64,000 bases of DNA from Candidatus Rifleibacteriota bacterium (lineage in GTDB: Bacteria; Muiribacteriota; Ozemobacteria; Ozemobacterales; Ozemobacteraceae): the NCBI GenBank assembly GCA_012517355.1, contig JAAYVD010000014.1, positions 17,264 through 81,263 on the forward strand, written 5' to 3'. The number at the start of each line of letters is the position of its first letter. Position 1 is the first letter of the stretch. The position numbers and the translations under genes were made by a program. The notes below the pieces were generated by a model, which was not told where the DNA came from, did not search any database, and saw only the letters and a list, made by a program, of their open reading frames with translations. Below, in pieces: positions 5,936 through 45,195 of this stretch.

Positions 5936-5958
5936 GTCGTCCTCCCCGGCGGCCGTCG

Positions 5959-7176: not shown

Positions 7177-7203
7177 CAGGGTGCGTGCCGGTGCGGCATG
7201 GTC

Positions 7204-23489: not shown

Positions 23490-24224
23490 TCAGGCGGCGA
23501 GATCTTTTTCGGCGGTGGGGTCGCCCCGGATCCCGAAACGGGGAAACTGCTGGCGCAACCTGGTCAGAACGGACTTCCCGAGCCATTCCCCGGTGATGGG
23601 GGGCAACGACGGATCGAGAGTCTTGCCCTCCTGGAACTTCTGGAGCACGAATCGGGTGGTGCCCAGGGATTTCAGGAAATCGCCGATCTGGAGGATCCAT
23701 TCCGGACTGACCAGGGTAGGGTGCACCGTGGTGCGGAACTCGTGTTCGATGGCGCTGTCGATGAGTAGACGGGCCGATTCCCGGACGGCGGCATCAATGG
23801 GAACCCCGGTCAGGTCGCGGTAGTGACCGGGCGGAGCCTTGATGTCGAGCGCCACGAAGGCCAGTCGGCGCCGCTCGAGGAGGCCGCCGAGCCGCTGTGG
23901 AAAGGCCCCATTGGTGTGAAGGCCGACGGCGTAGCCCAGGGCCAGAGTGTCTTCGATGGCGGCTTCGAGGGTGTCCTGGAAGGTGGGCTCGCCGCCGCTG
24001 AAGACCACCCCTTCCAGGAACCCCCGGCGGCGGTCGAGAAAGGCCAGGATGTCATCCCAGGGGATGTCGCCGGAGCCTTTCTCGACCAGCTCGGGGTTGT
24101 GGCAGTACTGGCACCGCAGGTTGCATCCTCGCAGAAAGACGACGCACGCGATGCGGCGGGGGAAATCGATCATCGTGAGCGGCTGCAAGCCGCCCACGAT
24201 GGGCCGTCCGGGGCTGTCGGTCAT
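23490..24224 (-). CDS. nrdG: Anaerobic ribonucleotide reductase activating protein (radical SAM)
   Basis: CNLRCQYCHNPE cluster motif. Located immediately downstream of nrdD. Confidence 0.85.
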   Translation of the reverse strand: MTDSPGRPIVGGLQPLTMIDFPRRIACVVFLRGCNLRCQYCHNPELVEKGSGDIPWDDILAFLDRRRGFLEGVVFSGGEPTFQDTLEAAIEDTLALGYAVGLHTNGAFPQRLGGLLERRRLAFVALDIKAPPGHYRDLTGVPIDAAVRESARLLIDSAIEHEFRTTVHPTLVSPEWILQIGDFLKSLGTTRFVLQKFQEGKTLDPSLPPITGEWLGKSVLTRLRQQFPRFGIRGDPTAEKDLAA

Positions 24225-24234
24225 CGGGACTGGA

Positions 24235-26430
24235 TCAGAGGACCTTGCTGACCGCTTCTGGGGCGTGGATGATGGTGCGTTCCCGGTATTCGCTTTTCTT
24301 GCCGGCGTTGAATTGGGATACGGGGCGGTAATACCCCATGACGCGGGTCCAGACTTCGCACCGCTGGCGGTTTTCGGTCGCCAGCTGGGGGACGGGGGCG
24401 GTATCGCCCTGAACCGGATCGACCGCGGCCTGGGCCTTCAGGCGGGCCGTCTCGATCTCGTCGCAGGTGGGGCAGAACGGCTGTTCGCCGGGGAGATAGC
24501 CGTGCTTGGGGCACACCGAAAAGGTCGGGGTGATGGTGATGTACGGCAGCCGGAACTGGGAGAGGGATTTCTGCACCAGGCGCTTGCAGGAGTTGGCATC
24601 GGGAATGCGTTCGCCGACGTAGAGGTGGAGGACGGTGCCCCCGGTATAGTAGCGCTGCAGCTGTTCCTGGTGCTCCATCATTTCGAAGAGATCGCCTTCG
24701 AAGCCGACGGGCAGCTGGGTGGAATTGGTGTAATAGGGGGCGGCCGGGGAACCGGCCTGGATGATGTCGGGGAAACGCTTCTGGTCTTCGCGGGCGAAGC
24801 GGTAGGTGGCTCCTTCGGCGGGGGAGGCTTCGAGATTGTAGAGGTTGCCGGTCTGGGTCTGGATCTCGATCATGCGCTCGCGCAGATGGGTCATGACGCG
24901 CTGGGCGAACTCGACGCCTTCGCGGGACCGGATGTCATGCTTGCCGTCGGTGAAGTTGCGGATGCACTCGTTCATGCCGTTGATGCCGATCGTCGAGAAG
25001 TGGTTGCGCAGGGTGCCCAGATACCGCTTGGTGTAGGGGAACAGCCCGTTGTCGATCAGCCGGTTGATGACCTTGCGCTTGACTTCGAGGCTCTTGACGG
25101 CCATGTTGACCAGTTCGTCGAGGCGGTTGGTGAGGCCTTCCCAGTTGTTCTTGTGAAGGAACCCGAGGCGGGGGAGGTTGATGGTGACGACGCCGATCGA
25201 GCCGGTCTGTTCGGCCGACCCGAACAGGCCGTTGCCGCGCTTGAGGAGCTCGCGCAGGTCGAGCTGCAGGCGGCAGCACATGGACCGGATCTGGTTGGGC
25301 TTGAGATCGGAATTGATGAAATTCTGGAAATACGGCAGCCCGTATTTGGCCGTCATTTCGAAGAGGGGGGCGCAGTTGGGGTGATCCCAGTCGAAATCCT
25401 TGGTGATGTTATAGGTGGGAATGGGGAAGGTGAAGGCGCGGCCGGCGCGATCGCCGCGGCTCATGACCTCGATGAAGGCGCGGTTGATCATGTCCATTTC
25501 GGCCTGGAGTTCACCATATTTGAAATCGACGGGCCGGCCGCCGACCAGGGGCGTCTGGGTGGCCAGGTCTTCGGGGCAGATCCAGTCGAAGGTCAGGTTG
25601 GTGAAGGGCGTCTGGGTTCCCCAGCGTGAGGGCACGTTCAGATTGTAGATGAACTCCTGGATTCCCTGGAAGACTTGCTTGTAGTCGAGCTTGTCAGTAC
25701 GGACGAAGGGGGCAAGATAGGTATCGAAGGAACTGAAGGCCTGGGCACCGGCCCACTCGTTCTGGAGGGTGCCGAGGAAGTTGACCATCTGGCCGAGGGC
25801 ACTGGAAAAGTGGGTGGGGGGGCCGGCCTCGATCTTGCCGTAGACGCCGTTGAAGCCTTCCTGAAGGAGCATGCGGAGGGACCAGCCCGCGCAGTACCCC
25901 GAGAGCATGTCGAGATCGTGGATGTGGAAGTCGCCGGCCCGGTGGGCCTCGCCGATTTCGGGATTGTACACATGTGACAGCCAGTAATTGGCGACAACCT
26001 TGCCTGACACGTTCAGGATCAGGCCCCCGAGGGAGTACCCCTGGTTGGCGTTGGCGTTGACCCGCCAGTCCTGCTGGCCGAGGTATTCGTTGATCGAGCC
26101 GATGACATCGACGAGCGTGCGGCGGCCTTCGCGCATGGCCTTGTGCTGCTCGCGATACACAATGTAGGAGCGGTTGGTGAGGAAGTAGTTGTTGGCGATC
26201 AGGATGTGTTCGACGACATCCTGGATCTCCTCGATCGTCGGCGTTCCCGTGCACCCGCGGTGGGCCAGGACATTGACCACCTGGCTGGCCATGCGGGCCG
26301 CTTCCTGGGGGCCATACTCCCCGGTGGCCTTCCCGGCGCGCTCCATGGCGGACCGGATCTTGTCGGCATCAAACGGCTTCAGGCTGCCATCGCGGGTTTC
26401 GACGGATCTCAACTCTCTCCCTTGCTTCAT
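24235..26430 (-). CDS. nrdD: Anaerobic ribonucleoside-triphosphate reductase (class III)
   Basis: N-terminal ATP-cone, C-terminal Zn motif CPKHGY...CPTC and glycyl-radical motif RVMGYYRP. Confidence 0.9.
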   Translation of the reverse strand: MKQGRELRSVETRDGSLKPFDADKIRSAMERAGKATGEYGPQEAARMASQVVNVLAHRGCTGTPTIEEIQDVVEHILIANNYFLTNRSYIVYREQHKAMREGRRTLVDVIGSINEYLGQQDWRVNANANQGYSLGGLILNVSGKVVANYWLSHVYNPEIGEAHRAGDFHIHDLDMLSGYCAGWSLRMLLQEGFNGVYGKIEAGPPTHFSSALGQMVNFLGTLQNEWAGAQAFSSFDTYLAPFVRTDKLDYKQVFQGIQEFIYNLNVPSRWGTQTPFTNLTFDWICPEDLATQTPLVGGRPVDFKYGELQAEMDMINRAFIEVMSRGDRAGRAFTFPIPTYNITKDFDWDHPNCAPLFEMTAKYGLPYFQNFINSDLKPNQIRSMCCRLQLDLRELLKRGNGLFGSAEQTGSIGVVTINLPRLGFLHKNNWEGLTNRLDELVNMAVKSLEVKRKVINRLIDNGLFPYTKRYLGTLRNHFSTIGINGMNECIRNFTDGKHDIRSREGVEFAQRVMTHLRERMIEIQTQTGNLYNLEASPAEGATYRFAREDQKRFPDIIQAGSPAAPYYTNSTQLPVGFEGDLFEMMEHQEQLQRYYTGGTVLHLYVGERIPDANSCKRLVQKSLSQFRLPYITITPTFSVCPKHGYLPGEQPFCPTCDEIETARLKAQAAVDPVQGDTAPVPQLATENRQRCEVWTRVMGYYRPVSQFNAGKKSEYRERTIIHAPEAVSKVL

Positions 26431-32114: not shown

Positions 32115-32390
32115 GGAAAGCTTTTGCACCTTCCCAGGCGAATAGCTCGGTTTGCGGTGGCCGATCCCCTTTGCGCGGATCGTTGACAAAAAAACAATGC
32201 TCCGCATCAAGGCTTGCCGAAGGGGCTTTGCCCTTCACCCCACCAGGGCCGATGGCCCTGGACCCTTTCTGCTGGCCAGGTGAACGCTGACGCGTTCACC
32301 TCGCGGAAGCTCCGCTTGGCGGTCCGTTAGCCCTGGACCGGACGGTAGAAAACGACATAGGTAGGCTTTCGCAAGCTTTCCCTGTCACAC

Positions 32391-32422
32391 CACCGTACAT
32401 GCGGGTCCGCATACGGCGGTTC
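32391..32422 (-). ncRNA. Group II intron domain V
   Basis: Minus strand ACCGCCGUA-UGCG-GACC-CGCA-UG-UACGGUGGU. This is a two-part helix with a 2-nt bulge on the 3' strand, 14 nt after the IEP stop. Confidence 0.6.
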
Positions 32423-32436
32423 GGCGGGTTGAGCGG

Positions 32437-33813: not shown

Positions 33814-34245
33814 GAGAATCGATGCCTACTTTCCCTTCCCTTTACCCCCCTCATCGGGGGGGACCGTTTGAGCCTTCGCCCCACGATCGGAGCTACTTTG
33901 CCCGCTGCTGACTTCTACCCGGCGGTCAGGAGTCCTCACGGACCCCTCAGTCACGATTCCGTGACACCGGGCAGATCTCCCGAGATAAGCCCGACAGCCT
34001 TCCGCACACGACCACCGAATTTACCACCAGCGCCCTTGATGGATATGGACTTCGGAATCACTTGCTCCCTCGTCCGGCGCCGTAGGCCTCTGTATCCGGT
34101 TCTTGTTCATTGGCCCGTGCGTTTGCTCCACGCTTCCTTCGGACCCCACCTCGCGGTAGACGCCCTTGCGTTTCGCTAATCCTTCACCTCCATCAGGTTG
34201 GATAGGGGACTTTCACCCCAAAGCTGCCGAGCGTGCTCGGCGTAC

Positions 34246-34283
34246 AAGAAAAACCGGCCGGCCACGGTGGGGGCCGGCCGGTC
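34246..34283 (-). terminator. Rho-independent terminator of the competence-like operon
   Basis: Minus strand ACCGGCCGGCC-CCCACCGT-GGCCGGCCGGT followed by UUUUUCUU. It begins 12 nt after the Clp1-like stop codon. Confidence 0.8.
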
Positions 34284-34295
34284 TGAGGAGACGGA

Positions 34296-35558
34296 TCAGA
34301 GGCTGCCGGGTTCGAGGAAACCGGCTTCTTCCCCTTTTTCATTGAGCTTCAGCGAACCGAACTGGATGCCGGCGATCTGGTCGAGCGAGCCCTTGAAGGG
34401 GGTGCGCAGGCGGAACTGGTTGTTGAGGAAGTCGATCTCCTCGAGACGGGCGATGGCGAGGCAGTTCTGGGCGGCGTCGAGCAGGGCGACCATCAGGCCG
34501 CGTTCCTCTCCGGCAATGAAGGTGCGGATCATGCCCAGGTCGGTGGGCCATCCCTTGGTCATCTCGGGCAGCAGGGGGCCGGAGGTGACGACCAGGGTGC
34601 CTTCCCAGCCGGAGAGTTTTTCGGCGTGGAGGGTTCCTTCGAGGGTGAGGGGGGAGCCGGTCAGGAAGAAGCAGCGGTCGGTGAACACCTGCCGGAAGGG
34701 GAGGGTGACCACGCGGGCGTCGCGGAAGTAGCGGGTGGAGACCATTTCCCGCAGCCCCTTGCGCTCCATCTGCGAGGTCGGGGAGGCCTTCTTCGAAACG
34801 GGCAGGCGGGCGATGCGGGAGGGCGGCAGGTGCTTGACCAGGTGCTCGAGTTCGGTGCCGCGCTGCATCAGGACCACCAGATCAGGGTTGACCAGGTCGA
34901 GCTTGGCCTTCTTGATGGCGCGGCCGCCATCCCCCTGGACCCAGCCGGTGGTGTCGATGATCAGGGCGTCCGCCTCGGCCTTGGCCTTGCGCATCATGGC
35001 ATTGAGGCCGGTCATGGCCGGCAGGAAGTGCAGGCCGGGCGAGTGGGCGCCCAGCAGATACAGGTGGGTGGGCGTCTCCTCGGTGAGGAAAATGGCGGGT
35101 TTCTGCATGACGAGCATGCCGAACGTGCCCGGGGGGCCGATGTCGGACTGGCCCGTATCGCAATCCAGGATGGCGGTGCGGCCGAGCTTGTCGATGAGGC
35201 GGTTGGCGAGGTAGGTGCTGAAGAAGGTCTTGCCGGTGTCGACCTCCCCCATGACGATGATCTTGTAGAGCTTCCCGGCGGTCCTTTCCCGGGCGATCTT
35301 GTCGGCGAGCTGGTCCCATTCGGCGGGGACGGAACTGGCCTCCATCTTGGTCAAGGCGTCGTCCTTCGCCTCGTATTCGATGGTGGTCTCGTCGAGGGCC
35401 AGGATGGGCACCCGTTTGCCGAGGGGCACGACGACTTTCTGGCCGGGGCCGATCTTCGCGGCGATGACCTCGATCTGGCCCGTCTGGACGGTCAGTTCGG
35501 CGGGGCCGACCAACAAGTGGAAATCGTTCTTCTGGAAGGTACTGGTCTTCATGGTCAT
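34296..35558 (-). CDS. Clp1/Grc3-type polynucleotide 5'-hydroxyl kinase homologue
   Basis: ATGA overlap with the upstream gene. N-terminal beta-domain, P-loop VMGEVDTGKTFFSTYLANRL, then ILDCDTGQSDIGPPG (the Clp1 D-x-D-x-G-Q signature) and a C-terminal domain. Confidence 0.65.
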   Translation of the reverse strand: MTMKTSTFQKNDFHLLVGPAELTVQTGQIEVIAAKIGPGQKVVVPLGKRVPILALDETTIEYEAKDDALTKMEASSVPAEWDQLADKIARERTAGKLYKIIVMGEVDTGKTFFSTYLANRLIDKLGRTAILDCDTGQSDIGPPGTFGMLVMQKPAIFLTEETPTHLYLLGAHSPGLHFLPAMTGLNAMMRKAKAEADALIIDTTGWVQGDGGRAIKKAKLDLVNPDLVVLMQRGTELEHLVKHLPPSRIARLPVSKKASPTSQMERKGLREMVSTRYFRDARVVTLPFRQVFTDRCFFLTGSPLTLEGTLHAEKLSGWEGTLVVTSGPLLPEMTKGWPTDLGMIRTFIAGEERGLMVALLDAAQNCLAIARLEEIDFLNNQFRLRTPFKGSLDQIAGIQFGSLKLNEKGEEAGFLEPGSL

Positions 35559-35974
35559 TTCCTCTTTCCCTTCTCGAACACGAGGGAGGGCCACATCTCC
35601 TCGAGGACCTTCTCGTTGAGGACGTTCACCTTGTCGAGCTCCTTGAACCCGAGTTCGAGTTCGTCCTCGGCGGTGACGGATTTCACGCCCTTGAGGGTGA
35701 TGCCGTCGCCGTCCTTGGCCACCACGGTGCCGAAGTAGCAGTCATCGCGGTTGCGGACGTAGACCTTCTGGCCGATGGCGAGGTCCTGGGGTTTGCTCTC
35801 CTTGACGGCGCCGCCGATGCACATGTTGGCGATGCCGGGGTAGAGGGGGACCTCCTCGTAGAGTCGGATCAGCTGCTGCAGGACGTCGCGCAGGAGCAGG
35901 GGATCGCTTTCCCGGGCCATGAAGGCCTTGAGGAACTTGAGGAGGGCGGGAAAATCGGTTTCTTTGAAGCTCAT
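35555..35974 (-). CDS. Small hypothetical protein with a Tudor/SH3-like C-terminal half
   Basis: 139 aa, non-biased composition. IGQKVYVRNRDDCYFGTVVAKDGDGITLKG resembles a small beta-barrel. Translationally coupled to the Clp1-like gene. Confidence 0.55.
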   Translation of the reverse strand: MSFKETDFPALLKFLKAFMARESDPLLLRDVLQQLIRLYEEVPLYPGIANMCIGGAVKESKPQDLAIGQKVYVRNRDDCYFGTVVAKDGDGITLKGVKSVTAEDELELGFKELDKVNVLNEKVLEEMWPSLVFEKGKRK

Positions 35975-35987
35975 GGGCGGGTTCCTT

Positions 35988-37424
35988 TCATCTGGGGGTG
36001 GCGGGGACGTACTCCAGGCCGAGATCCCGGGCCTTGCCGGTCTGTTCGGGGGTCAGGGCGCCCGCGCGCCAGGCGAGGTCGAGGTCGCGCATCTCGTTCA
36101 GCTGGGCCATGACCTGGTGCAGCACCTGGAAGAAGGTGACCTGGGGGGTCTTGACGGTGCATTCCGCTGCCTTGGGGTGGCCGCCGCCGCTGATGACCGC
36201 TTTGTGCTCGGGGAACCTCGCCTGCAGGATGTTCTGGAGGGTGCCGCAGAACTTGCCGGAATGGACGCGGTCGCCGGTGCCGCGGACCGAGACGTGGGTG
36301 TAGTCGTCGGAGACCGAGCTGACCATGATGATCTGGGCGGTGGGGTCGCCGGCCTTCTGATTGAGCTCGAACAGCTTGATGGACCCGATCATGGGCAGGA
36401 GGGGGACCTTGACGCCGACGAACAGGTAGATGGTGGTGTTTTCGAGCCGCAGGATCTTCGCGGTGGTGTCGAGGGTCTTGCTGGCGCGTTCCCAGTCTTC
36501 GACGAAGAAGCCGAAGATCTTTTCGAGGCGGCCACGGTGCGGCTGGGGGAGCAGAGCGGTGAACTCGGCGAGCGACTTCAGGCCGGGCAGTTTCGCGGCC
36601 TGGTCGGCGATGGCTTCGAGGGCCTCGGCGATGCAGTGGGCGTGGTCGACGGTGCGCAGCTCAGGGTCGCGGTCGTGATAGAAGTAGGAGAAGCCGCCGC
36701 CGCCGGTGCCGTGGACGTATTCGGTGATGCGGCTGAGCAGGCAGGTGACCTCGCGCTGCATCGAGTCGAACTGGGTCGGGCGTTCCCGCAGGACGCCGAG
36801 CAGGTTGCGGAAGGCCATGCCGTATTCGACCAGGAAGGGTTTGACGAAATCGGCGAGCAGGCCGCTGACGGGCTCGATGGCCCAGTCGCCCTTCAGGCCG
36901 ACCAGGCAGAGGAAATCGTCGAAGGTGTCGCGGGTGCCGGCCAGGGTGGCGATGCCGTGGGCCAGGATGGAGGTCGAGCACCAGGTGTATTTCTCGAGGC
37001 TGGGGTTGTAGATGACGCAGTCGCTGGGGGCCTTGGGGGTCGGATGGTGGTCGACGATGTAGACGGGGAGCTTCTTGCCGTATTCGGCGTAGGGGGCGAG
37101 GGTTCCCTTGTCGAGGAGGAAGACGGCGCCGGTGTCGGGGTTCTCGGCGAGGGCCCTGTCGAGCTGCTGGGGTTGGAGCATGAACCCTTCGGGAAGGCGG
37201 AGGGCCACCTTCCAGCCTTTCTTCTGGAGCATCCGTTTGAAGATGAGACCGCTGGTGATGCCGTCGGGATCGTCATGGGAGAAGACCAGGGCGGTCCCCT
37301 GGGGGCGGGCGATCTTGTCGAGGAGCCGCACCAGCCCGGGTTCCTGCAGGCGGATGGCGTCCCATTGCTGTTGGTGACTTTCGGCGGCGGTCGGGGGATT
37401 CTGCAACAAGGCGGTCTCTTGCAT
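35988..37424 (-). CDS. DHH/DHHA1-family phosphoesterase (RecJ/NrnA-like)
   Basis: Motifs FSHDDPDGITSG, VDHH and SGGGHPKAA (DHHA1). Confidence 0.8.
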   Translation of the reverse strand: MQETALLQNPPTAAESHQQQWDAIRLQEPGLVRLLDKIARPQGTALVFSHDDPDGITSGLIFKRMLQKKGWKVALRLPEGFMLQPQQLDRALAENPDTGAVFLLDKGTLAPYAEYGKKLPVYIVDHHPTPKAPSDCVIYNPSLEKYTWCSTSILAHGIATLAGTRDTFDDFLCLVGLKGDWAIEPVSGLLADFVKPFLVEYGMAFRNLLGVLRERPTQFDSMQREVTCLLSRITEYVHGTGGGGFSYFYHDRDPELRTVDHAHCIAEALEAIADQAAKLPGLKSLAEFTALLPQPHRGRLEKIFGFFVEDWERASKTLDTTAKILRLENTTIYLFVGVKVPLLPMIGSIKLFELNQKAGDPTAQIIMVSSVSDDYTHVSVRGTGDRVHSGKFCGTLQNILQARFPEHKAVISGGGHPKAAECTVKTPQVTFFQVLHQVMAQLNEMRDLDLAWRAGALTPEQTGKARDLGLEYVPATPR

Positions 37425-37471
37425 TCGCTGTCCTTTCCGATGGCTTGGGGATGGTGCCCAGTATAGAGGGG

Positions 37472-38428
37472 TCAGAGGTCGCGGTCAACCTTGAACAAGA
37501 AATCCCTGGGATCGCGACCGCCGATGGCGAGCCGGATGTTGCCCTGGTGGTCGTTGCGATAGATCTTGGCGCCCAGGGAGCCATACAGGCTGATCGCGGC
37601 GGGCGAGGGATGGCGGAACGGGTTGTCGCGGCCGACCTGGATGACGCCGCATTCGGGGGCGACCAGGTCGAGGAAAGGTTTGTAGATGCTGGTTTCGGAT
37701 CCGTGGTGCGGCACCTTGATGACCTGGACCTTCAGACCCGGCCCGTAGCGGGTCAGTTCCATCTGCACCTTTTCCTCGACGTCGCCGGTCAGGAGCAGGG
37801 CGACCTTGCCGTAGCGCACCAGCAGGACCACCGACATGTTGTTGATGTCGGAGAACTCCTGCGACTTCACCACCTCGACGGGATGGAGGACCTGGACGAA
37901 GAGTTCCTCTCCCCAGTCGAGGATGTCTCCGGCCTGGGCGACGGAGCGGGGAATCCGCTTCTGCTGGCAGAGGGCCCCGAAGTCCTTGAAGGTGGCGGTA
38001 TCGAAATCGCTGCCGCACTCCCAGACGTGATCGACGCGAAACAGCTTGAGGACGGGAAGGATGCCGCCGAGGTGATCGTTGTGGGGGTGGGTGACGAGGA
38101 CTCCGTCGAGGCGGGTGATTCCCAGTTGCCGCAGGTAGTAATGGACCAGTTCCCGGCCTTCCGATTTGGCCTGGGAGAGGGGGACGTTGGTGCCTGCATC
38201 GACGAGGAAGGCGCGGCCGTGGGGGGTTCGCAGGAGGATGGCGTCGCCCTGGCCGACGTTGATGAAATCGACCAACAGGTCGCGGTGGAAGGGCGGGGTC
38301 AGGAGGCCGCCCAGGTTGGGGCTGAGGACGACGGCCCAGACGGCCAGGAAGACGAGGAAGAGGAAGATGAAAATGAAGCGGCTGCTGTTGGACTGGAAGG
38401 ATTTCTGCTCGAACCCGTATTCGACCAT
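37472..38428 (-). CDS. Membrane-anchored metallo-beta-lactamase fold hydrolase (ComEC C-terminal-domain-like)
   Basis: N-terminal TM, NVGQGDAILL, and an intact HxHxDH motif (THPHNDHLGG); later KVPHHGS. Confidence 0.8.
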   Translation of the reverse strand: MVEYGFEQKSFQSNSSRFIFIFLFLVFLAVWAVVLSPNLGGLLTPPFHRDLLVDFINVGQGDAILLRTPHGRAFLVDAGTNVPLSQAKSEGRELVHYYLRQLGITRLDGVLVTHPHNDHLGGILPVLKLFRVDHVWECGSDFDTATFKDFGALCQQKRIPRSVAQAGDILDWGEELFVQVLHPVEVVKSQEFSDINNMSVVLLVRYGKVALLLTGDVEEKVQMELTRYGPGLKVQVIKVPHHGSETSIYKPFLDLVAPECGVIQVGRDNPFRHPSPAAISLYGSLGAKIYRNDHQGNIRLAIGGRDPRDFLFKVDRDL

Positions 38429-38456
38429 GCTCTCCCTTTCGGCCGCGGCGGGCCGG

Positions 38457-39080
38457 TCATTTCACCTCGATGAGATCGACGAACTTCTGCAGCTTGGCGG
38501 CGGTGAGGCCGGGAACGTCCTGGAGGTCCTCCAGGGTGTGAAAGCCGCCCCGCTGGTTGCGCACGTCGACGATGGCCTTGGCGGTGGTCTTGCCGACCCC
38601 GGGCAGTTTTTCGATCTCCTCGAGCGAGGCGAAGTTCAGGTTCAGCTTCAGGCCGGCGCCGAGGCCGCCGGAGCGGCCGCCCTTGGCGGTGAGGAACCGG
38701 CGCAGGGTGGAGTATTTTTTCTTGGTCATTCCCTTCAGGGACATCAGTTCGTTGAGGTCCTTGATCTCGCCCTTCTCCTGTCGGTATTCGAGGATGCGCT
38801 GGGCAAAGGCCTTGCCCATGCCGGGCAGCATGTCGAGGTCGGCCAGGGTGGCCTGGTTGATGTTCAGCTTGTTGTGATCGTCGCCGCCGCTTTCCGCCGA
38901 ATCGAACTCCTTCCCGATGGGTTTGCGGTCGGTCAGGGCCTGGACGGCCCGGATCTCCTCCTGGACGGCCAGGTTGTGGGCATGGTTGGCCCGGACCTTG
39001 AGCAGGATGACGCCCCCTCCGATCAGGATGCCGACGATCAGGAGGGTGAAGGTGATCTTCTCGAGCCGGGTGAGGACCAT
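38457..39080 (-). CDS. comEA: ComEA-like DNA receptor with two helix-hairpin-helix modules
   Basis: N-terminal TM and two copies of the INxAxxxxLxxLPGxGxxxAxxI pattern. TGATG 1-nt overlap with comEC. Confidence 0.8.
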   Translation of the reverse strand: MVLTRLEKITFTLLIVGILIGGGVILLKVRANHAHNLAVQEEIRAVQALTDRKPIGKEFDSAESGGDDHNKLNINQATLADLDMLPGMGKAFAQRILEYRQEKGEIKDLNELMSLKGMTKKKYSTLRRFLTAKGGRSGGLGAGLKLNLNFASLEEIEKLPGVGKTTAKAIVDVRNQRGGFHTLEDLQDVPGLTAAKLQKFVDLIEVK

Positions 39081-42000
39081 CAGGTGTCTGGCTTCCCTTC
39101 GCGGGGGATGAACCGTTTCACGGCGAGATCGTCTTTCAGGACGTCGACCTGGATGGCGCCGTCGGTCTGGGTCTGGAAGAAGATCTCGGCGAGATCGCGG
39201 ATGCGGCGTTCGACCTGGATGCCCCTCCCGTCGAGGATCTTCTTCATGTAGAACCCTTCCATGAGCCAGGAGGAAGGTTTCCGCCAGCTGAGGGCGACCC
39301 GTTGGAACCGGCCCTGGGCCAGCATATCCCAGAATTCCTGGAGTGGGAAGGGGAGGTCGGCGAGGAAGAGGACGTCGACCTTTTCGGGCAGGACCTTGGG
39401 CAGGGAATACATGCTGCCCGACGAGTAGACGAACCGGCGGTTCCCTTCAGAGACCTGCAGGATGGCGCCGTCGTAATACACGGAGAACCGCTCGGGATCC
39501 CTGTCGGGATACAGGACCTCGAGGGTGTCCTCGAACCCGGGCACGCGTCGGCCGGCCATGAGGCGGCCGACCGGGATTCCCTTCTGGTGGACCCGTTTGA
39601 TCAGGGCATTGAACGCCTGGAAGGCCTGGTCCCAGTAGTAGTTGGGCGGGGAGGAAGGGATGATGCCCTTGCGGAAATCGGCTTCGATCTTCATGTCGGC
39701 GAAGGAGAACCGTTTGACGAACTCCTGGAAGGGGATGAGGCGGCCGTCGGTGGGGATGTCGAAGGGGGCGAGGATCTGGCCGATCTGGTAGGAGTCGGCG
39801 ATGCTCATCAACCCGGAGACGCGTTCGGGAAGGGCCGTGGTGAGGATCACGGTATCGAGACGGTCGATGAACTTTTCCGACAGGGCGGGCTGGGTGACCC
39901 GTTCCCCGACGTCGTATTCGGAGAGGCTGTCACGCATGCCGGCATCGATGAGGGCGGCGCGGCCCCCTTTTTCGACCAGGAGGGCGGAGCCGAAGCCGAC
40001 GTCGAGCATGGTGCAGCGCAGGGATGGCTGCCGCTCGAGGCGGGAGAGGCCGAAGACGGCCAGGAACAGGCCCCCGGCCAGGAGCAGGCCGGCCACCAGG
40101 CCGATGGACAGTTTGTAGTCGGGGTCTTCCCAGAGTTCGGTGACGGCGCTCCACAGGGCGGCGGCGTATTCGGTGACGAGGTCCCAGTAGAAGTAGAGGT
40201 GCAGGGCGAGGTAATACAGGAGCACCAGGCCGATGCCGGGTTGGGAAACCCGGGGGAAGGGGATCAGCACGGCGAAGAAATGGGCCATGCCGAGAAAGAA
40301 CTTCACCCCGAGCCAGTTGGCCGCATTGAGGAGGAGGGCGAGATACAGGCCGATGACCGGGACGAAGGTGCCGATGATGGCGGCGACCATTCCCAACTGG
40401 ACGATCAGGCCGATGAGAGGGATGGCGATCATGTTGGCCATGGGCGAGGCCAGGGAGACCGATCCGAAATAAAAGGCGGACAGGGGGCCCATCATGGCCA
40501 GGAAGATGGACACCTGGGAAGCGGTGAAACTCTTCAGCCAGTTGGGGAGCATCTCGAAACTGTAGCTGCCGAACCCCGAGGAGGCGGCCAGCTTGCGACT
40601 GGCCCACAGGGTGGTGAGGATGTAGAGGGCGGCGGCCTGGAAGAACCAGGGGTGGATCACGAGGTCCCGTTTGACGATCACCACGCCGTAGAAGAGGAAG
40701 GATGCCACGGCGGCGAAGAGGAGCCCGTTGCCGCGGAGGCAGTCGCGCAGGAGCTTTTCGGCGGGGTCGGTGAACATGGCCAGGGCGTAGATGGCCATGA
40801 ACGACAGGACGAAGCTGGGCTCGGTCAGTTGCAGAGGGCTCATCGACAGGATGTAGGCGGCGGCCACGGCCAGGGAGAAGATGATGGACAACCGGAAGCC
40901 GCGGTCCTTGAGGTAGGCCCGCGACAGCACGAACAGGCTGTTCATGAGGGCGGCGCGGACGGCGGAACTGGGCCAGCCGACGATGAGGGCGAAGGTGAAC
41001 AGGCAGAAGACGATGATGGGGGCGAAGATCCGCATGGGGACCCGGAACATGGTGAAGATGCCGTAGAACAGCGCGGCGATGATGGTGACGTGGAGGCCCG
41101 AGACGGCCAGGACGTGGGACACGCCCGTCTTGCGGAACTCGGTGCCGACGATGGGGGGCAGGCCCCCCTTGAGGCCGAGCAGGACCCCGCCCAGGAAGGA
41201 GGATTCGGGATAGGGCATGGTCTTCTTGACGATCTTGAGGAACTCGGTGCGCAGGTAGAGGGCAAACCGGTACCACATGGCTCCGGAGGGGTTTTCGGCC
41301 AGGATGGTCACCCGGCCCGACTTGGCGGTGTGGCGGAATGTCCGGAAGACTCCCTGGTTGCGGAGATACTTCTGGTAATCGAGGCTGCCGGGGTTCCGCC
41401 GGGTGGAGGCCTTGTTGAACTGGCCAACCAGTTCGATGGTCTGGTCGAACTTGACCTGGCGGTATGCCTCGGTTTCCTGGTAGATGAGGGCCGAGATCAA
41501 CCCACCTTCGACCTCGACCTCCGGTTCGGGCGGCTCTTCGGGCAGGGCATAGCCGTCGGCCCCCTGGGGAAGCGGGGCCGCTCCCGACGCGGGAGTGGTT
41601 CCAGGCGAAGTTTCCTCGGGCTGTCCCTTCTTTTTCCGGCCCTTTTTGCGACCTTTGGCGGGGTCCTTGGTCTTTTTGGTGCGGACCACCTTCTGGACGA
41701 GCCGCGGTTTGACCTTCACCTCCAGGTAGTCGCCCTTGAGGTTGGGTTCCTCGATGACCTCGCCGACCACGCGCCACTTGGTCCAGGGGTCGGCGTTTTC
41801 CATGATCCGGTCGAGGTGCCGGGGGCCGACCGCGTGGATGGCCCCGGCATAGCGGTAGATGCCGAAACAGGCCATGGCGGCCATCAGGAACAGCACGCTG
41901 AGAACGGGGAACGCCTCCTCCTCGCGGAAAATGCTTCGGAAGGCTCCTTCCGAGATCGCCTCGGCATGGCGTTGCCAGAAGGGGATGGCGGCACCGACCA

Positions 42001-42109
42001 GCAGGAAGACGGTCAGAAGCAGGAAGAAGGCGACCGCGTGCAGGTCGAACAAGACCGCCAGGGCCATCCCGACGATGTAGGAGAAGGTGAAGAGGATGAA
42101 ATGACCCAC
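39080..42109 (-). CDS. comEC: ComEC/Rec2-family DNA internalisation channel with a degenerate C-terminal MBL domain
   Basis: 1009 aa. N-terminal OB (DUF4131-like) region with a Lys-rich insert, a polytopic competence domain and a C-terminal MBL-like domain lacking the metal ligands (VILTTALPERVSG where HxHxDH is expected). Confidence 0.85.
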   Translation of the reverse strand: MGHFILFTFSYIVGMALAVLFDLHAVAFFLLLTVFLLVGAAIPFWQRHAEAISEGAFRSIFREEEAFPVLSVLFLMAAMACFGIYRYAGAIHAVGPRHLDRIMENADPWTKWRVVGEVIEEPNLKGDYLEVKVKPRLVQKVVRTKKTKDPAKGRKKGRKKKGQPEETSPGTTPASGAAPLPQGADGYALPEEPPEPEVEVEGGLISALIYQETEAYRQVKFDQTIELVGQFNKASTRRNPGSLDYQKYLRNQGVFRTFRHTAKSGRVTILAENPSGAMWYRFALYLRTEFLKIVKKTMPYPESSFLGGVLLGLKGGLPPIVGTEFRKTGVSHVLAVSGLHVTIIAALFYGIFTMFRVPMRIFAPIIVFCLFTFALIVGWPSSAVRAALMNSLFVLSRAYLKDRGFRLSIIFSLAVAAAYILSMSPLQLTEPSFVLSFMAIYALAMFTDPAEKLLRDCLRGNGLLFAAVASFLFYGVVIVKRDLVIHPWFFQAAALYILTTLWASRKLAASSGFGSYSFEMLPNWLKSFTASQVSIFLAMMGPLSAFYFGSVSLASPMANMIAIPLIGLIVQLGMVAAIIGTFVPVIGLYLALLLNAANWLGVKFFLGMAHFFAVLIPFPRVSQPGIGLVLLYYLALHLYFYWDLVTEYAAALWSAVTELWEDPDYKLSIGLVAGLLLAGGLFLAVFGLSRLERQPSLRCTMLDVGFGSALLVEKGGRAALIDAGMRDSLSEYDVGERVTQPALSEKFIDRLDTVILTTALPERVSGLMSIADSYQIGQILAPFDIPTDGRLIPFQEFVKRFSFADMKIEADFRKGIIPSSPPNYYWDQAFQAFNALIKRVHQKGIPVGRLMAGRRVPGFEDTLEVLYPDRDPERFSVYYDGAILQVSEGNRRFVYSSGSMYSLPKVLPEKVDVLFLADLPFPLQEFWDMLAQGRFQRVALSWRKPSSWLMEGFYMKKILDGRGIQVERRIRDLAEIFFQTQTDGAIQVDVLKDDLAVKRFIPREGKPDT

Positions 42110-42110
42110 G

Positions 42111-42278
42111 TCAGTCGGTCTCTTCTGCCACTTCTACATTCGGGTAGTAGTCCTCGTTGGTGACGGCGATCTGGTCGGTCCGGTAGTCGGATTTGACGAT
42201 CAGCACGAACATGCCCAGCACCAGGGTGGTCAGGAGCATGGCGATGAGGAAGATCTGGCCGTCGTTCTCTTCCGCCAT
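42111..42278 (-). CDS. Possible 55-aa single-TM protein (below the ORF-track length cutoff)
   Basis: My own translation: MAEENDGQIFLIAMLLTTLVLGMFVLIVKSDYRTDQIAVTNEDYYPNVEVAEETD. The ATG is 6 nt after the upstream TAG, and the stop is 1 nt before the comEC start. Confidence 0.4.
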   Translation of the reverse strand: MAEENDGQIFLIAMLLTTLVLGMFVLIVKSDYRTDQIAVTNEDYYPNVEVAEETD

Positions 42279-42284
42279 GGGGGG

Positions 42285-43070
42285 CTAATCGCTGATGGCG
42301 GCCCAGACGTTGGTCGTGCGGACCCAGTCTTTGTACAGGCCGAAGAACTTGTCGAAGTCGAGGGTGGTGACCTGCCGGAAGACGTTCTCGGCATCGGCGT
42401 CCTCGAGGACGGCCATCAGGGTCGCGAATTTCTTGAAGAACTTGTCCGAGTAGTTCGAGATCAGCAACCGCACCATGAAAAATGCCTGGAAGGTGGCCAG
42501 CTGTCGGCGGTTGGCATCGGGGATGAGATGGAGGCTCTTGGCCATGACCGACGGTTTGATCAACTGCTCGGCCTTGAGGGCTTCCATGCAGATGTTCCAC
42601 CCGTTGACCAGGAATTCCTTGGAATCGGGGCGGATCTTGAACGGCACCTGGAGACAGATGCCCTCGCGCAACCAGGATGGGGTGCGGTAGGTGCGGATGC
42701 CGATTTCCCGCTCCTTCACCCCGGCGTTGAACAGGAGGTAGCACAACTGGCGGACGATGTCCTCACCCAGGTTTTTGGGAAGGTGGGAGGCCCCCAGCAT
42801 GAGGACGCTCTCGTCGGGCAGGATTCGCACCGTCTCGCCCATGGACATGGGCTTCTGGGTCACCCTTTCAATGGTGGCCAGGTCGGGATACAGGAAAATC
42901 TCCGCGGTGGGCGGTTCTTCGAGGCCGAAGACCATCTGGATGCCTGGAGTCGCCCGGTCGAGGTAATTGAGCATCTCCTCGGCGGCGACACTGTGCTGCA
43001 GATCGAAGTAGAGGCGGTAACCCTTGATCTCGAACTTCTGATTCAAGCCATCAACGAGGTATTTCGACAT
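42285..43070 (-). CDS. Hypothetical protein, first gene of the competence-like operon
   Basis: 261 aa, non-biased composition. SD GGGAGGG lies before the ATG at 43070. No motif recognised. Confidence 0.6.
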   Translation of the reverse strand: MSKYLVDGLNQKFEIKGYRLYFDLQHSVAAEEMLNYLDRATPGIQMVFGLEEPPTAEIFLYPDLATIERVTQKPMSMGETVRILPDESVLMLGASHLPKNLGEDIVRQLCYLLFNAGVKEREIGIRTYRTPSWLREGICLQVPFKIRPDSKEFLVNGWNICMEALKAEQLIKPSVMAKSLHLIPDANRRQLATFQAFFMVRLLISNYSDKFFKKFATLMAVLEDADAENVFRQVTTLDFDKFFGLYKDWVRTTNVWAAISD

Positions 43071-43091
43071 GGTCAGCCCTCCCGTCGCCTC

Positions 43092-43121
43092 ACCTTACCA
43101 CAGGCCTTCCCGGGGATTCAA
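43092..43121 (-). promoter_or_regulatory. Putative promoter of the competence-like operon
   Basis: Minus strand TTGAAT (43121-43116), 18-nt spacer, TGgTAAGGT extended -10 (-10 hexamer at 43097-43092). Confidence 0.4.
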
Positions 43122-43331
43122 CCCGACAGCCGGGGACAGGACCACCGGGGAGATGGAATCGGGGGGGGGGACGATCGGTTGATCCGGGCGGGGGAAACGG
43201 TCTCCTGGAAATGATGGAGGGGCGCGGGTTCGGGCTCCGGGTCCGGCCGGCCACGTGAGTTGTTCCCGTCGGCGGGGAGTGAAGGAAGGGGCAGGTTCGC
43301 CGGCGAGCGGAAGTCGGGGCGTTTTTTCCAG

Positions 43332-43361: not shown

Positions 43362-43416
43362 ATCAGCTTCCAGACTCCCCGAACGCGAGAGGATACCATC
43401 GAGGAGGGTACCGCTA

Positions 43417-45195
43417 ATGTTAGACAAGATCGAACTGTTTTCCGGCCTGAACTCCAAGGAACTCAAAGACGTCGAGAACATCGCGAAGGTCCTGACCTTC
43501 GCCCGTGGCGAGACGGTCTTCAACCAGGGCGACTACTCGTCGGAGTTGTACATCATCGAGACCGGCCAGGTCGAGATCTCGGTGAAGGACATCCTCCAGA
43601 ACAAGCGTGTGCTGTCGATCGTCAAGAACGGGGACTTCTTCGGAGAGATGGCCCTGTTCGACAAGAACAGCACCCGGTCGGCCACGGCCAAGGCGGTGAT
43701 GAACACCAACCTGATCGTCATCCCGAGGCAGGAATTCGAACGGCTCCTGCAGTCCCGGCCGCAGATCAGCTTCAAGCTGCTGTCTGCCCTGTCCCGGCGT
43801 CTGCGGGAGGCCAACCTGCGGTCCTCCTCGTCGACCTCCCTGGAAAAGCGGACGGACGGACGGGTCATCGTGGTGGCGGCCCCCCAGAACGGGTATGGCA
43901 AGACCACCATGGCCACCACCCTCGCCCACCTGCTGACGGCCGAACTGGAGAAGCGGGTGTTGTACATCGACCTCGACCTCTGTTTCGGGGAAGGCACCTT
44001 CGTGATGGGCATCTATTCCCCGCGCTCCATCGTCAACCTCTGCCAGGGGCTCCGGGGCGGCCCCCCCTCGCGTGAAGACCTGTTCAAGCACTTCGTGCGG
44101 ATCACCGACAATCTCTTCGTCGTTCCCGCCCCGACCAACTTCCTCGACGGCGAGAACGTCAAGGGGGCCGACCTGGTCTCGATCATCAAGACCTGCAAGC
44201 CCCACTTCGACTACATCATCATCGATTCGGACAGCTCGGTCGAGGAGCGCCTCCTGAACGCCTTCGATCTGGCCGACCACATCCTGTTCCTGGTCCAGAC
44301 CAACGAGGTGCTGTCGCTCAAGAGCAACGTCCGGTATTTCCACGGGCTCGAGAAGTTGAACTACCCCGAGGACCGGATGAGCATCCTCATCGGGAAGGTC
44401 GGCGAGAAGTTCGACCTCGAGAAGAGCCGCAAGCTGTTCAAGTTCAAGGTGATCGGTGGCCTGCCGTTTATCCCCAACTACACCCCCCAGTATGGCCGCA
44501 GCGTGTATCACCTCGAACCCACCGGCAACTTCGTCGCGGTGGCCCGGGGCTTCATGAAAGGAACCTTCCGCGAGGAGTTCCCCGGGGAAAGCGAATCCGG
44601 CGGCCGCGGGTTCCTGTATCGCCTGTTCTTCGACAAGAACCAGAAGAGCACCGAACACAACATCCCGACCGACATGCCTCGCCCGATCGACCTGGTCGGC
44701 GGCAGCCATCCATCCGTCTCCGAGGAAGCGTTGTCGGTGCTGTTGAAATACATCCGCACCAACGTCATCTACGGGAACCTCGAAGAAGCGCGGTTCCAGA
44801 CCCTCAAGCTCCTGGAATTCTGCCAGAACTCGAGCACCCTGTACCAGATCCTCGGCGAGATCTTCATGCTCGAGAAGAACTTCTCCGAAGCCATCGATGC
44901 CTTCAAGCGCGCCATCGAAATCGACCCCGAGAACTACCTGGCGATCGGCTACCTGGGCGACCTGTCCTCCGACGATGCCTGCTTCGAGCGGGCCGTCTCC
45001 CTGCTGAAGGCCAAGCTCGAAAAGACCCCCAACTACCCCGATCTGCTCAATGACATGGGCAAGCTCCTGTACAAGAAGGGGGACTACGCCAAGGCCGAGC
45101 AGATGTTCCGCACCGCCCTGGAGAAGAACGTCGGCTACCTCGAAGGCCACATCAACCTGGCCGTCGTGCTCGGCGAGACGGGTAAATTCGACTAG
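43417..45195 (+). CDS. Cyclic-nucleotide-binding domain / ParA-TadZ(CpaE)-like ATPase / TPR protein, terminated by a TAG inside a TPR repeat
   Basis: cNMP motif FGEMALF...RSATAKA, deviant P-loop VVAAPQNGYGKTTMATT, DSDSS, then TPR repeats. See the finding on the in-frame TAG. Confidence 0.8.
   Translation: MLDKIELFSGLNSKELKDVENIAKVLTFARGETVFNQGDYSSELYIIETGQVEISVKDILQNKRVLSIVKNGDFFGEMALFDKNSTRSATAKAVMNTNLIVIPRQEFERLLQSRPQISFKLLSALSRRLREANLRSSSSTSLEKRTDGRVIVVAAPQNGYGKTTMATTLAHLLTAELEKRVLYIDLDLCFGEGTFVMGIYSPRSIVNLCQGLRGGPPSREDLFKHFVRITDNLFVVPAPTNFLDGENVKGADLVSIIKTCKPHFDYIIIDSDSSVEERLLNAFDLADHILFLVQTNEVLSLKSNVRYFHGLEKLNYPEDRMSILIGKVGEKFDLEKSRKLFKFKVIGGLPFIPNYTPQYGRSVYHLEPTGNFVAVARGFMKGTFREEFPGESESGGRGFLYRLFFDKNQKSTEHNIPTDMPRPIDLVGGSHPSVSEEALSVLLKYIRTNVIYGNLEEARFQTLKLLEFCQNSSTLYQILGEIFMLEKNFSEAIDAFKRAIEIDPENYLAIGYLGDLSSDDACFERAVSLLKAKLEKTPNYPDLLNDMGKLLYKKGDYAKAEQMFRTALEKNVGYLEGHINLAVVLGETGKFD

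Follow-up and report, generated by a model that had tools for sequence, protein, structure and literature searches.

What would a Clp1-type polynucleotide kinase do next to the genes for a DNA import channel? The question is raised by a locus on the minus strand of a 64,000-nucleotide stretch of DNA (hereafter, the window; GenBank assembly GCA_012517355.1, contig JAAYVD010000014.1) from Candidatus Rifleibacteriota bacterium, a member of the family Ozemobacteraceae. Eight same-direction open reading frames (ORFs) extend from 43070 down to 34296, in the order hyp261-TM55-ComEC-ComEA-MBL-DHH-small-Clp1 (MBL, metallo-beta-lactamase). The initial annotation, made from the sequence alone, described a single competence-like operon of nine genes; there are eight, which is also the number that this annotation actually listed, and they fall into two modules. 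Module A consists of hyp261, TM55, ComEC, ComEA and MBL, and module B consists of DHH, the small 139-amino-acid protein (small139) and Clp1. The answer developed here is that module A would import DNA, whereas module B would heal 5'-OH ends and degrade the strands for salvage, the two being coupled in Riflebacteria; in our judgment, the chances that this composite model is correct are about even.

Two modules in one locus

The boundary between the modules is marked by an internal promoter that escaped the initial annotation. The sequence TTGACC-17-TATACT at 37488-37460 on the minus strand (P2) is the sole sigma70-type consensus match within 33.5-43.7 kb; it spans the stop codon of the MBL gene, lies 35 nucleotides upstream of the DHH start, and is invariant across five Ozemobacteraceae genomes in which the adjoining non-coding bases vary. 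The comparison was extended to 79 loci (designated below by L numbers), with one genome per species, onto which all eight window proteins were mapped. When the Riflebacteria loci were scanned for promoters, with at least 10 of 12 consensus positions matching and at most 200 nucleotides between the match and the gene start, a TTGACC-N17/18-TATACT-type match was detected upstream of DHH in 32 of 38 loci. The same scan yielded no matches for hyp261 (0 of 24), TM55 (0 of 20) and ComEC (0 of 20), and a single match each for ComEA (1 of 32) and MBL (1 of 33); among the downstream genes, there were 4 matches in 41 loci for small139 and none for Clp1 (0 of 41) or NrdD (0 of 19). The motif lies about 60-78 nucleotides from the DHH start (up to about 120 nucleotides in two loci) while the MBL stop is 146, 699 or 3518 nucleotides away; P2 therefore belongs to DHH. 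Conservation of the -35 box merely through the MBL coding sequence was considered and rejected given that the motif tracks DHH when the MBL stop is distant. The MBL-DHH junction contains no terminator, either in the window or in Rifleibacterium, and this, together with the dedicated promoter, suggests that module B is probably transcribed both from P2 and by read-through. The single operon of the initial annotation is therefore not indivisible: in addition to carrying an internal promoter, the locus includes a triad, DHH-small139-Clp1, that six or more other lineages, and a few Riflebacteria, have without ComEC, ComEA and MBL.

The other signals and the gene junctions largely match the earlier description. 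The strong terminator is there and is placed at 34251-34284 on the minus strand, with a 13-bp stem that includes 10 GC pairs and is followed by a T-run; it closes the unit and is the strongest hairpin in the region. ComEA overlaps the ComEC stop by 1 nucleotide (TGATG at 39080), small139 and Clp1 overlap in an ATGA (35555-35558), and TM55 and ComEC are separated by a 1-nucleotide gap at 42110, all as claimed. The upstream promoter, P1 (43092..43121, minus strand; TTGAAT-18-TAAGGT with a TG before the -10 box), located ahead of hyp261, fared less well. Its TTGA...TGTGnTA pattern forms a conserved island amid divergent intergenic DNA in four Ozemobacteraceae genomes, but it was missed by the consensus scan, and P2 is a far better match, so that P1 is plausible but weak as a promoter. 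Also upstream of hyp261, the intergenic region contains ten consecutive C on the minus strand (43161-43170), a tract that is not kept in the closest relatives; homopolymer tracts of this kind can change length. The G+C content of the cluster, 0.63-0.65, lies inside the 0.59-0.68 range of the surrounding 26-46 kb, and the closest relatives of its Clp1 come from Candidatus Ozemobacter sibiricus and other Riflebacteria. A search of Rfam over the operon detected no riboswitch or structured RNA, the sole match being a group II intron downstream.

The kinase, the small protein and the nuclease of module B

The predicted polynucleotide 5'-OH kinase (34296..35558, minus strand; 420 amino acids) matches the CLP1_P family of Pfam (7.2e-34), and the profile of its family retrieves the Clp1 of C. 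elegans (ceClp1) from the PDB (4.9e-17), along with human CLP1, NOL9 and Grc3. In alignments of 13 and 40 sequences, the Walker A motif GEVDTGKT and the segment D132-x-D134-x-GQSD are invariant or nearly so, and the clasp DTTGW206 and the lid R266-x3-R270 are invariant. The P-loop and the DxGQ segment align with the P-loop and LDVGQ of ceClp1, and the TTGW clasp aligns with the ceClp1 clasp NTCGW. The AlphaFold2 model (predicted local distance difference test score, pLDDT, 93.2; predicted template modelling score, pTM, 0.91) is matched by Foldseek over the full length to ceClp1 (E 8e-28, about 440 columns, TM-score 0.68/0.72) and also to human and yeast Clp1. As modelled, the protein is a three-domain Clp1, with N-terminal beta, polynucleotide kinase and C-terminal domains.

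Bacterial Clp1 has been reported to be rare and to have no known role; the only characterised representative, Ts-Clp1 from T. scotoductus, is a 27-kDa bare kinase domain that phosphorylates single-stranded RNA and, less well, single-stranded DNA (PMC6777427). In the published survey, the N- and C-terminal domains are considered eukaryote-specific and bacterial Clp1 is described as consisting of the kinase domain only (PMC6777427). Unlike in this description, the N- and C-terminal domains of the bacterial subfamily found here superpose on those of eukaryotic Clp1. In the searchable literature, no role is given for bacterial Clp1 and no paper links Clp1 to RecJ or DHH; a search on Riflebacteria and ComEC likewise returned nothing relevant.

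The small protein encoded upstream of the kinase (35555..35974, minus strand) has no match in Pfam, NCBIfam (E <= 0.01) or PADLOC, including the Pfam LSM models (Sm1/Sm2). Its AlphaFold2 model, of medium confidence (pLDDT 79.5), consists of N-terminal helices followed by a five-stranded barrel, for which the top Foldseek matches are SmF, SmAP, Lsm and the LSm domain of Edc3, with E of only about 1e-3 and TM-scores on the target of 0.65-0.77 over about 60 residues. The fold search thus points to an Sm/LSm-like barrel rather than specifically to the Tudor/SH3-like fold that had been suggested. The invariant motifs are YPG, G82 and a C-terminal WPxLxF. The family is small, with 93 representatives among 1.84 billion sequences, and a profile search for distant homologues added just three; the full-family matches are all stand-alone proteins of about 130-145 amino acids, with no fusions to other domains among them. 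In all the Riflebacteria loci that cover it, and in 27 of the 37 loci elsewhere, small139 is located directly upstream of Clp1, and by gene order it appears to be an obligate partner of this Clp1 subfamily.

The third component of module B is a DHH/DHHA1 phosphoesterase of 478 amino acids (35988..37424, minus strand), for which Pfam gives DHH at 1.9e-6 and a weak DHHA1 match, and NCBIfam gives RecJ_archaeal at 2.7e-14. Against the PDB, its profile matches PfuRecJ (1.1e-14), TkoGAN (7.7e-13) and MjRecJ2 (3.4e-12), compared with only about 1e-3 for NrnA. The motifs H50-D-D-P-D-G55, D105, D125-H-H127 and G413-G-G-H416 are invariant in 16 orthologues. No match to RecJ_OB was detected in this protein with Pfam; a canonical RecJ encoded next to the triad in L055 has one.

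A split ComEC in module A

All the domain calls of the initial annotation (ComEC, ComEA, MBL, DHH/DHHA1 and Clp1) hold in Pfam and NCBIfam, and those of module A reveal an unusual division of labour. ComEC (39080..42109, minus strand; 1009 amino acids) contains the Competence channel domain (PF03772, 8.8e-37) and the N-terminal OB domain (DUF4131, PF13567, 4e-10) that define the ComEC/Rec2 class, and has no Pfam MBL match. The C-terminal HxHxDH nuclease domain, which occurs in about half of ComECs, is missing in its intact form: the C-terminal region can be aligned to the stand-alone MBL protein, with TALPER in place of HxHxDH. At the aligned metal site, the MBL protein has VLVTHPHNDHLGG and ComEC has VILTTALPERVSG. 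This degeneration is no peculiarity of the window, given that the pattern (T/S)(T/S)(A/C/P)LPER(I/V)SG, mostly with ALPER, is found in 22 of the 22 full-length ComECs from the Riflebacteria clusters.

A separate gene, at 37472-38428 on the minus strand, encodes the intact domain. The MBL protein matches Lactamase_B (1.6e-15, Pfam), and its best NCBIfam match is the ComEC_Rec2 equivalog TIGR00361 (positions 443-663, E 2.4e-40). As stated in the initial annotation, it retains the metal motif (HPHNDH) and has an N-terminal hydrophobic helix that would anchor it in the membrane. Taken together, the match to the C-terminal part of TIGR00361, TALPER in ComEC and HPHNDH in the MBL protein mark this protein as the nuclease domain of ComEC, supplied in trans, and not as an addition to the competence locus. 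The possibility of a novel cytoplasmic nuclease was rejected, the protein being a homologue of the ComEC C-terminal domain with a membrane anchor. In published work, the MBL domains of ComEC that have been studied are located outside the cytoplasm, where they degrade the non-translocated strand with endonuclease and 5'->3' exonuclease activity and leave 5'-phosphate/3'-OH ends (PMC12455585; further work on this nuclease is found in PMC5031224, PMC8579336 and PMC6299819). The THxHNDHLGG motif of the MBL protein is kept wherever ComEC sits in the cluster. Where it does not (L032, L034, L035, L037, L038, L009 and L020), the motif drifts, with variants such as THWHVDDF, SNWHINNY, TSRHNDH and THFHNDR, which suggests relaxed or altered function in these loci.

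ComEA (38457..39080, minus strand; 207 amino acids) contains two helix-hairpin-helix (HhH) DNA-binding domains (two HHH_3 stretches, 5.6e-38; TIGR00426 in NCBIfam) and an N-terminal hydrophobic helix that is readable in the sequence, i.e. it has both the HhH domain and the membrane anchor of its class. TM55 (42111..42278, minus strand), a 55-amino-acid single-pass membrane peptide with one hydrophobic helix and no family match in Pfam or NCBIfam, is found in the cluster only together with ComEC, and the two are missing together, so that TM55 is probably an accessory subunit of ComEC. The 261-amino-acid protein hyp261 (42285..43070, minus strand), conserved in Riflebacteria, heads the cluster even where ComEC is missing from it. 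Its match to Peptidase_MA_2 is below the threshold (19 bits, where 32 are required) and it lacks HExxH, so that an active MA-clan peptidase was rejected.

Conservation across Riflebacteria

The full eight-gene order is present in about 20 Riflebacteria assemblies, with protein identities of 43-95%, and therefore is not due to chance. The survey of comEC context proposed in the initial annotation was run, and the linkage of Clp1 and DHH with comEA and MBL, and usually with comEC, was found in most Riflebacteria, so that the lack of linkage that would have refuted the annotation was not seen. Several lineages have a cluster without TM55-ComEC that still reads hyp261-ComEA-MBL-DHH-small-Clp1. There is no com gene near DHH-small-Clp1 in L030 and L033, nor in L014, which has little upstream sequence, and 0.7-3.5 kb is inserted exactly at the MBL-DHH junction in L034 and L032. 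Between the window and Rifleibacterium, the identities are 71% for Clp1, 64% for DHH and 60% for small139, compared with 49% for ComEC and 43% for ComEA.

Module B outside the phylum

Outside Riflebacteria, the triad or a pair of its genes is found in Elusimicrobiota, Caldisericota, Hydrogenedentota, Mcinerneyibacteriota, Clostridia and a bin labelled Hadarchaeota, with Clp1 identities of 38-47%; in addition to the frequent small-Clp1 adjacency, DHH is nearby in 14 of these 37 loci. None of these loci has ComEC, ComEA or MBL adjoining Clp1; a few Clostridia loci have weak ComEA/ComEC matches 4-10 kb downstream, and L082 has an MBL match about 1.7 kb downstream.

The neighbours in these loci, which were clustered and then annotated, belong largely to nucleoside and nucleotide metabolism. 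An MTAP-type purine nucleoside phosphorylase is found near Clp1 in 16 loci. The other recurrent neighbours are adenosine deaminase, PfkB kinase, HAD phosphatase, transketolase (Tkt), pyrimidine nucleoside phosphorylase (PyNP), purine nucleoside phosphorylase (PNP), a TIM-barrel phosphodiesterase (PDE) with weak CbiR/Nfo similarity, an adenylate-kinase-like P-loop protein, a RecJ::RNase T fusion and a NucT-like phospholipase D-family (PLD) nuclease whose N-terminus carries a hydrophobic segment; the module B gene set of L003 is preceded by a Bmp/ABC nucleoside transporter. At least four gene orders share this salvage theme, namely DHH-MTAP-(PfkB)-Nfo/CbiR-like PDE-adenylate-kinase-like-(adenosine deaminase)-small-Clp1-(NucT-like PLD), Tkt-PNP-PNP-Clp1-HAD-PLD, MTAP-PyNP-RecJ::RNaseT-DHH-small-Clp1 and Tkt-PNP-PfkB-Clp1, so that this is not one inherited arrangement. 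The salvage genes and the NucT-like nuclease around the triad provide independent support for the general idea of nucleic-acid scavenging, which had been put forward from the window alone. Neither the cluster nor its flanks contain ligase, cyclase or methyltransferase domains, i.e. the partners expected of RNA-repair systems of the Pnkp/Hen1 or RtcA/RtcB kind.

Some of these loci have features of their own. In L055, a Hydrogenedentota metagenome-assembled genome, positions 5601-7913 encode a 770-amino-acid canonical RecJ (DHH, DHHA1 and RecJ_OB) with an RNase T/DEDDh domain inserted between DHH and DHHA1; this gene is directly upstream of the triad and follows MTAP and the pyrimidine nucleoside phosphorylase. 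The TIM-barrel phosphodiesterase and adenylate-kinase-like pair, which could be a 3'-end or nucleotide-processing step, is tandemly duplicated around DHH-MTAP-PfkB in L050, L052 (112-6500), L054 and L059. The DHH-small-Clp1 set in L073, labelled Candidatus Hadarchaeota archaeon, reflects either inter-domain transfer or a binning error.

A proposed pathway and its alternatives

In the composite model, ComEA would bind DNA at the membrane and ComEC would form the channel; because the MBL domain of ComEC is catalytically dead, the membrane-anchored MBL paralogue would provide the strand-degrading nuclease in trans. Module B, with a promoter to itself, would work as an autonomous 'heal-and-degrade' unit in the cytoplasm: Clp1 would, at the expense of ATP, add a 5'-phosphate to single-stranded fragments of DNA or RNA that end in a 5'-OH, and the 5'-phosphorylated fragments would become substrates of a 5'-phosphate-recognising DHH exonuclease that releases mononucleotides. 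The Sm-like small139, whose gene is translationally coupled to that of Clp1, probably has the role of binding the oligonucleotide or of linking the kinase to the nuclease. The mononucleotides would enter nucleotide salvage, and the genes for the anaerobic ribonucleotide reductase and its activase (NrdDG) are usually next in Riflebacteria. With the modules head to tail in this phylum, imported DNA would be fed straight to salvage, which amounts to nutritional DNA uptake.

The notion that the kinase licenses the nuclease comes from the 5'-kinase activity of one bacterial Clp1, the salvage neighbourhoods outside the phylum, the anchoring of the terminal 5'-phosphate by RecJ (PMC4846377) and a precedent in yeast, where a kinase followed by a 5'-exonuclease effects 'healing for destruction' (PMC4102763). 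In its most specific form, the model has DHH, the Sm-like protein and the three-domain Clp1 forming a 'heal-for-destruction' complex wired to the ComEC/ComEA/trans-MBL importer, as a single-locus DNA-eating pathway. This specific form is tentative, and we lean somewhat more towards doubt than towards belief.

A number of observations weigh against the model. Archaeal RecJ-like enzymes differ in polarity and can be 3'->5' (PMC5615345, PMC11193018); a nuclease of that polarity would not be licensed by the kinase. ComEC imports a 3'-leading strand and environmental DNA is usually 5'-phosphorylated (PMC12455585), so that the need for a 5'-kinase is not obvious. The adjacency of the two modules is limited to one phylum and is partly lost within it, being absent from L030, L033 and L014 and interrupted by the inserts in L034 and L032; it could thus be inherited synteny without functional coupling, and the separate promoter lets the modules be expressed independently. 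The Sm-like assignment comes from a medium-confidence model with a Foldseek E of about 1e-3. Gene content, motif integrity, predicted folds, synteny and the internal promoter are observed; the enzymatic activities, nuclease polarity, complex formation and coupling between the modules are inferred. So is the nature of the substrate: characterised Clp1 enzymes favour RNA, so that module B may act on RNA and not on imported DNA.

This preference for RNA is also the starting point of a different explanation, under which module B serves housekeeping turnover or processing of endogenous 5'-OH RNA, produced by metal-independent RNases, toxins or ribozymes, and its adjacency to the com genes is phylum-specific synteny with no shared pathway. 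Such a role would agree with the Sm-like fold of small139, which is typical of RNA-binding proteins, and with the ability of PfuRecJ to degrade RNA as well (PMC5716160); furthermore, module B is the best-conserved part of the locus, has its own strong promoter and is found without com genes in other phyla. However, the genes that surround it there encode nucleoside phosphorylases, a deaminase, kinases, a nucleoside transporter and a NucT-like nuclease, secreted or anchored, with no ribosome or tRNA-processing genes among them, and a family as rare and patchy as small139 would be unusual for core RNA maturation. The salvage context fits catabolism, which could still begin from RNA. We consider RNA turnover unlikely, though less so than the remaining alternatives. 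Improbable, in comparison, is the chain of the initial annotation, in which the products of one operon act in sequence, the MBL protein cutting imported strands, Clp1 phosphorylating their 5' ends and DHH trimming them. The same-direction genes with short gaps and one strong terminator, the lack of a terminator between MBL and DHH and the linkage kept in Riflebacteria speak for this chain, but the conserved internal promoter divides the halves and the triad is widespread without MBL or ComEC. The first step, in particular, is not supported: the MBL protein is a membrane-anchored paralogue of the ComEC C-terminal domain, and the studied domains of this type work outside the cytoplasm, where they degrade the strand that is not imported and leave 5'-phosphates, so that it would not supply 5'-OH substrates to Clp1.

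Two further explanations were considered. If the locus served natural transformation, DNA ends coming in would be prepared by the RecJ-like nuclease and the kinase for recombination or ligation instead of being consumed. In favour of this, transformation relies on ComEC and ComEA as its core importers, and bacterial RecJ is known to act in the processing of recombination ends (PMC4846377). The cluster includes no DprA, RecA, ligase or pilus genes, though, the contexts of the triad elsewhere are catabolic, and it is NrdDG that follows, not recombination genes; we consider transformation very doubtful. An anti-phage defence system or mobile-element cargo built on nucleases and a kinase is hardly credible. 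The MBL protein does match the defence-associated MBL proteins PDC-M48B, LmuA and DRT RTasMBL in PADLOC, but at about 1e-15 these matches are far weaker than the match to ComEC (2.4e-40), and the other seven proteins of the cluster have none. Given that PADLOC gave generic MBL matches only, that no relatives of the cluster proteins were found in viral contigs or plasmids, and that the chromosomal synteny is stable across the phylum, a defence or mobile origin was rejected.

Relation to known systems

The kinase shares with the Clp1/Nol9/Grc3 family, in which C. elegans Clp1 is represented by the PDB entries 4ohv and 4oi0, the Walker A motif, the catalytic Asp-x-Gly-Gln, the TxGW clasp, the RxxxR lid and the full-length predicted fold. 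It differs from Ts-Clp1 in that the window subfamily is three-domain and comes with a DHH nuclease and a dedicated Sm-like partner, and from eukaryotic Clp1 and Grc3 in that the locus encodes no TSEN, Pcf11 or Las1 partner. The proposed logic, i.e. conversion of a 5'-OH to a 5'-phosphate by a kinase, of the Clp1 family or another, followed by the action of an exonuclease that depends on this phosphate, is the same as for Grc3/Nol9-Rat1/Xrn2 after Las1 and for Rlg1-Xrn1 in tRNA-intron decay (PMC4102763, PMC5900568). In contrast to these systems, the nuclease is of the DHH/RecJ type instead of the Xrn type, no endonuclease partner is encoded, and the context is salvage and DNA uptake instead of rRNA or tRNA processing; the coupling is deduced from gene linkage alone. 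The nuclease shares the DHH and DHHA1 catalytic motifs with archaeal RecJ/GAN/RecJ2 and bacterial RecJ/NrnA, and by size and best profiles resembles PfuRecJ, TkoGAN and MjRecJ2; the match is mainly in the DHH domain, however, and there is no RecJ OB domain and no GINS context.

In its importer, the locus resembles the comE operon of B. subtilis, with the OB/DUF4131 and Competence domains, an adjacent HhH ComEA and MBL nuclease chemistry available. Compared with that operon, the ComEC-borne MBL has lost its metal motif, the intact copy being a separate anchored protein, there is an extra 55-amino-acid peptide and a 261-amino-acid protein but no comEB, and kinase and nuclease genes follow. The use of 'DNA as a nutrient' by E. 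coli, studied by Finkel and co-workers, reportedly involves homologues of competence genes and single-stranded DNA exonucleases, RecJ among them. The principle would be the same here, with ComEC/ComEA-type import and breakdown of single-stranded DNA by exonucleases including a DHH-family enzyme, but the E. coli genes are scattered and include no kinase, whereas here they are contiguous and a 5'-kinase is part of the set. The DNA-foraging loci of Ca. Izemoplasma and other sediment bacteria similarly combine nuclease genes with nucleotide and nucleoside catabolism and transport, and are read as nutritional; they use secreted nucleases, nucleotidases and ABC transporters, without ComEC, Clp1 or DHH (PMC8289736).

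Thus, ComEC/ComEA, RecJ-like nucleases and Clp1 kinases are each known, whereas the triad, its salvage context and its joining to a split ComEC appear to be new. The conserved association of the kinase, in a salvage setting, with a RecJ-like nuclease and a small Sm-like orphan offers the first plausible role for bacterial Clp1, that of readying nucleic-acid fragments for breakdown and recycling, and suggests that kinase-licensed 5'-exonucleolysis, a eukaryotic logic, operates in bacteria too; if the heal-for-destruction complex is real, this would be the first defined physiological role for a bacterial Clp1 and the first case of ComEC import and cytoplasmic catabolism encoded together. For a phylum without a cultured model, the arrangement in Riflebacteria is genomic evidence for the long-debated nutritional use of competence machinery. 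The dead MBL domain of ComEC and its intact, detached copy make up a natural split that could help to dissect how the nuclease and the channel of ComEC cooperate.

Neighbouring genes

On the downstream side, NrdD-NrdG, usually found directly after Clp1 in Riflebacteria (in about a dozen distinct Rifleibacterium-like loci; at 11716-14659 in L001), is of uncertain membership in the window. Here, the pair is located at 23490..26430 on the minus strand (NRDD 4.9e-183 and Radical_SAM in Pfam), about 7.9 kb from Clp1, from which it is separated by an intron and by ClC, subtilase and aconitase-family genes.

Upstream, and divergent from the operon, a gene at 43411..45195 on the plus strand encodes a protein with a cyclic nucleoside monophosphate (cNMP)-binding domain (4.8e-23), a ParA/MinD-like domain (AAA_31) and TPR. 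Its membership in the locus is uncertain; it keeps its divergent position across Riflebacteria and may regulate the uptake genes in response to cyclic nucleotides. Its counterpart in L012 has a promoter that matches the consensus at 11 of 12 positions. A second TPR protein (45250-46416, plus strand) is also divergent from the operon, with its position kept across Riflebacteria.

The group II intron (32352-34240, minus strand) adjoins the operon terminator, a site typical of terminator-targeting bacterial introns. It contains a reverse transcriptase ORF at 32437-33813 (RVT_1 and a group II intron reverse transcriptase/maturase domain, GIIM), and its Rfam matches, to D1-D4 and to domain V/VI, fall at 33989-34160, 33871-33949 and 32352-32421. 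Between the intron and the subtilase gene, there is a ClC chloride-channel gene (30359-31948, plus strand; Voltage_CLC and TrkA_C). The intron is not present in L004, a 93%-identical relative, and in L004, L005 and L006 the subtilase gene comes directly after Clp1, with no ClC gene at that point; the ClC gene and the intron look like a recent joint insertion.

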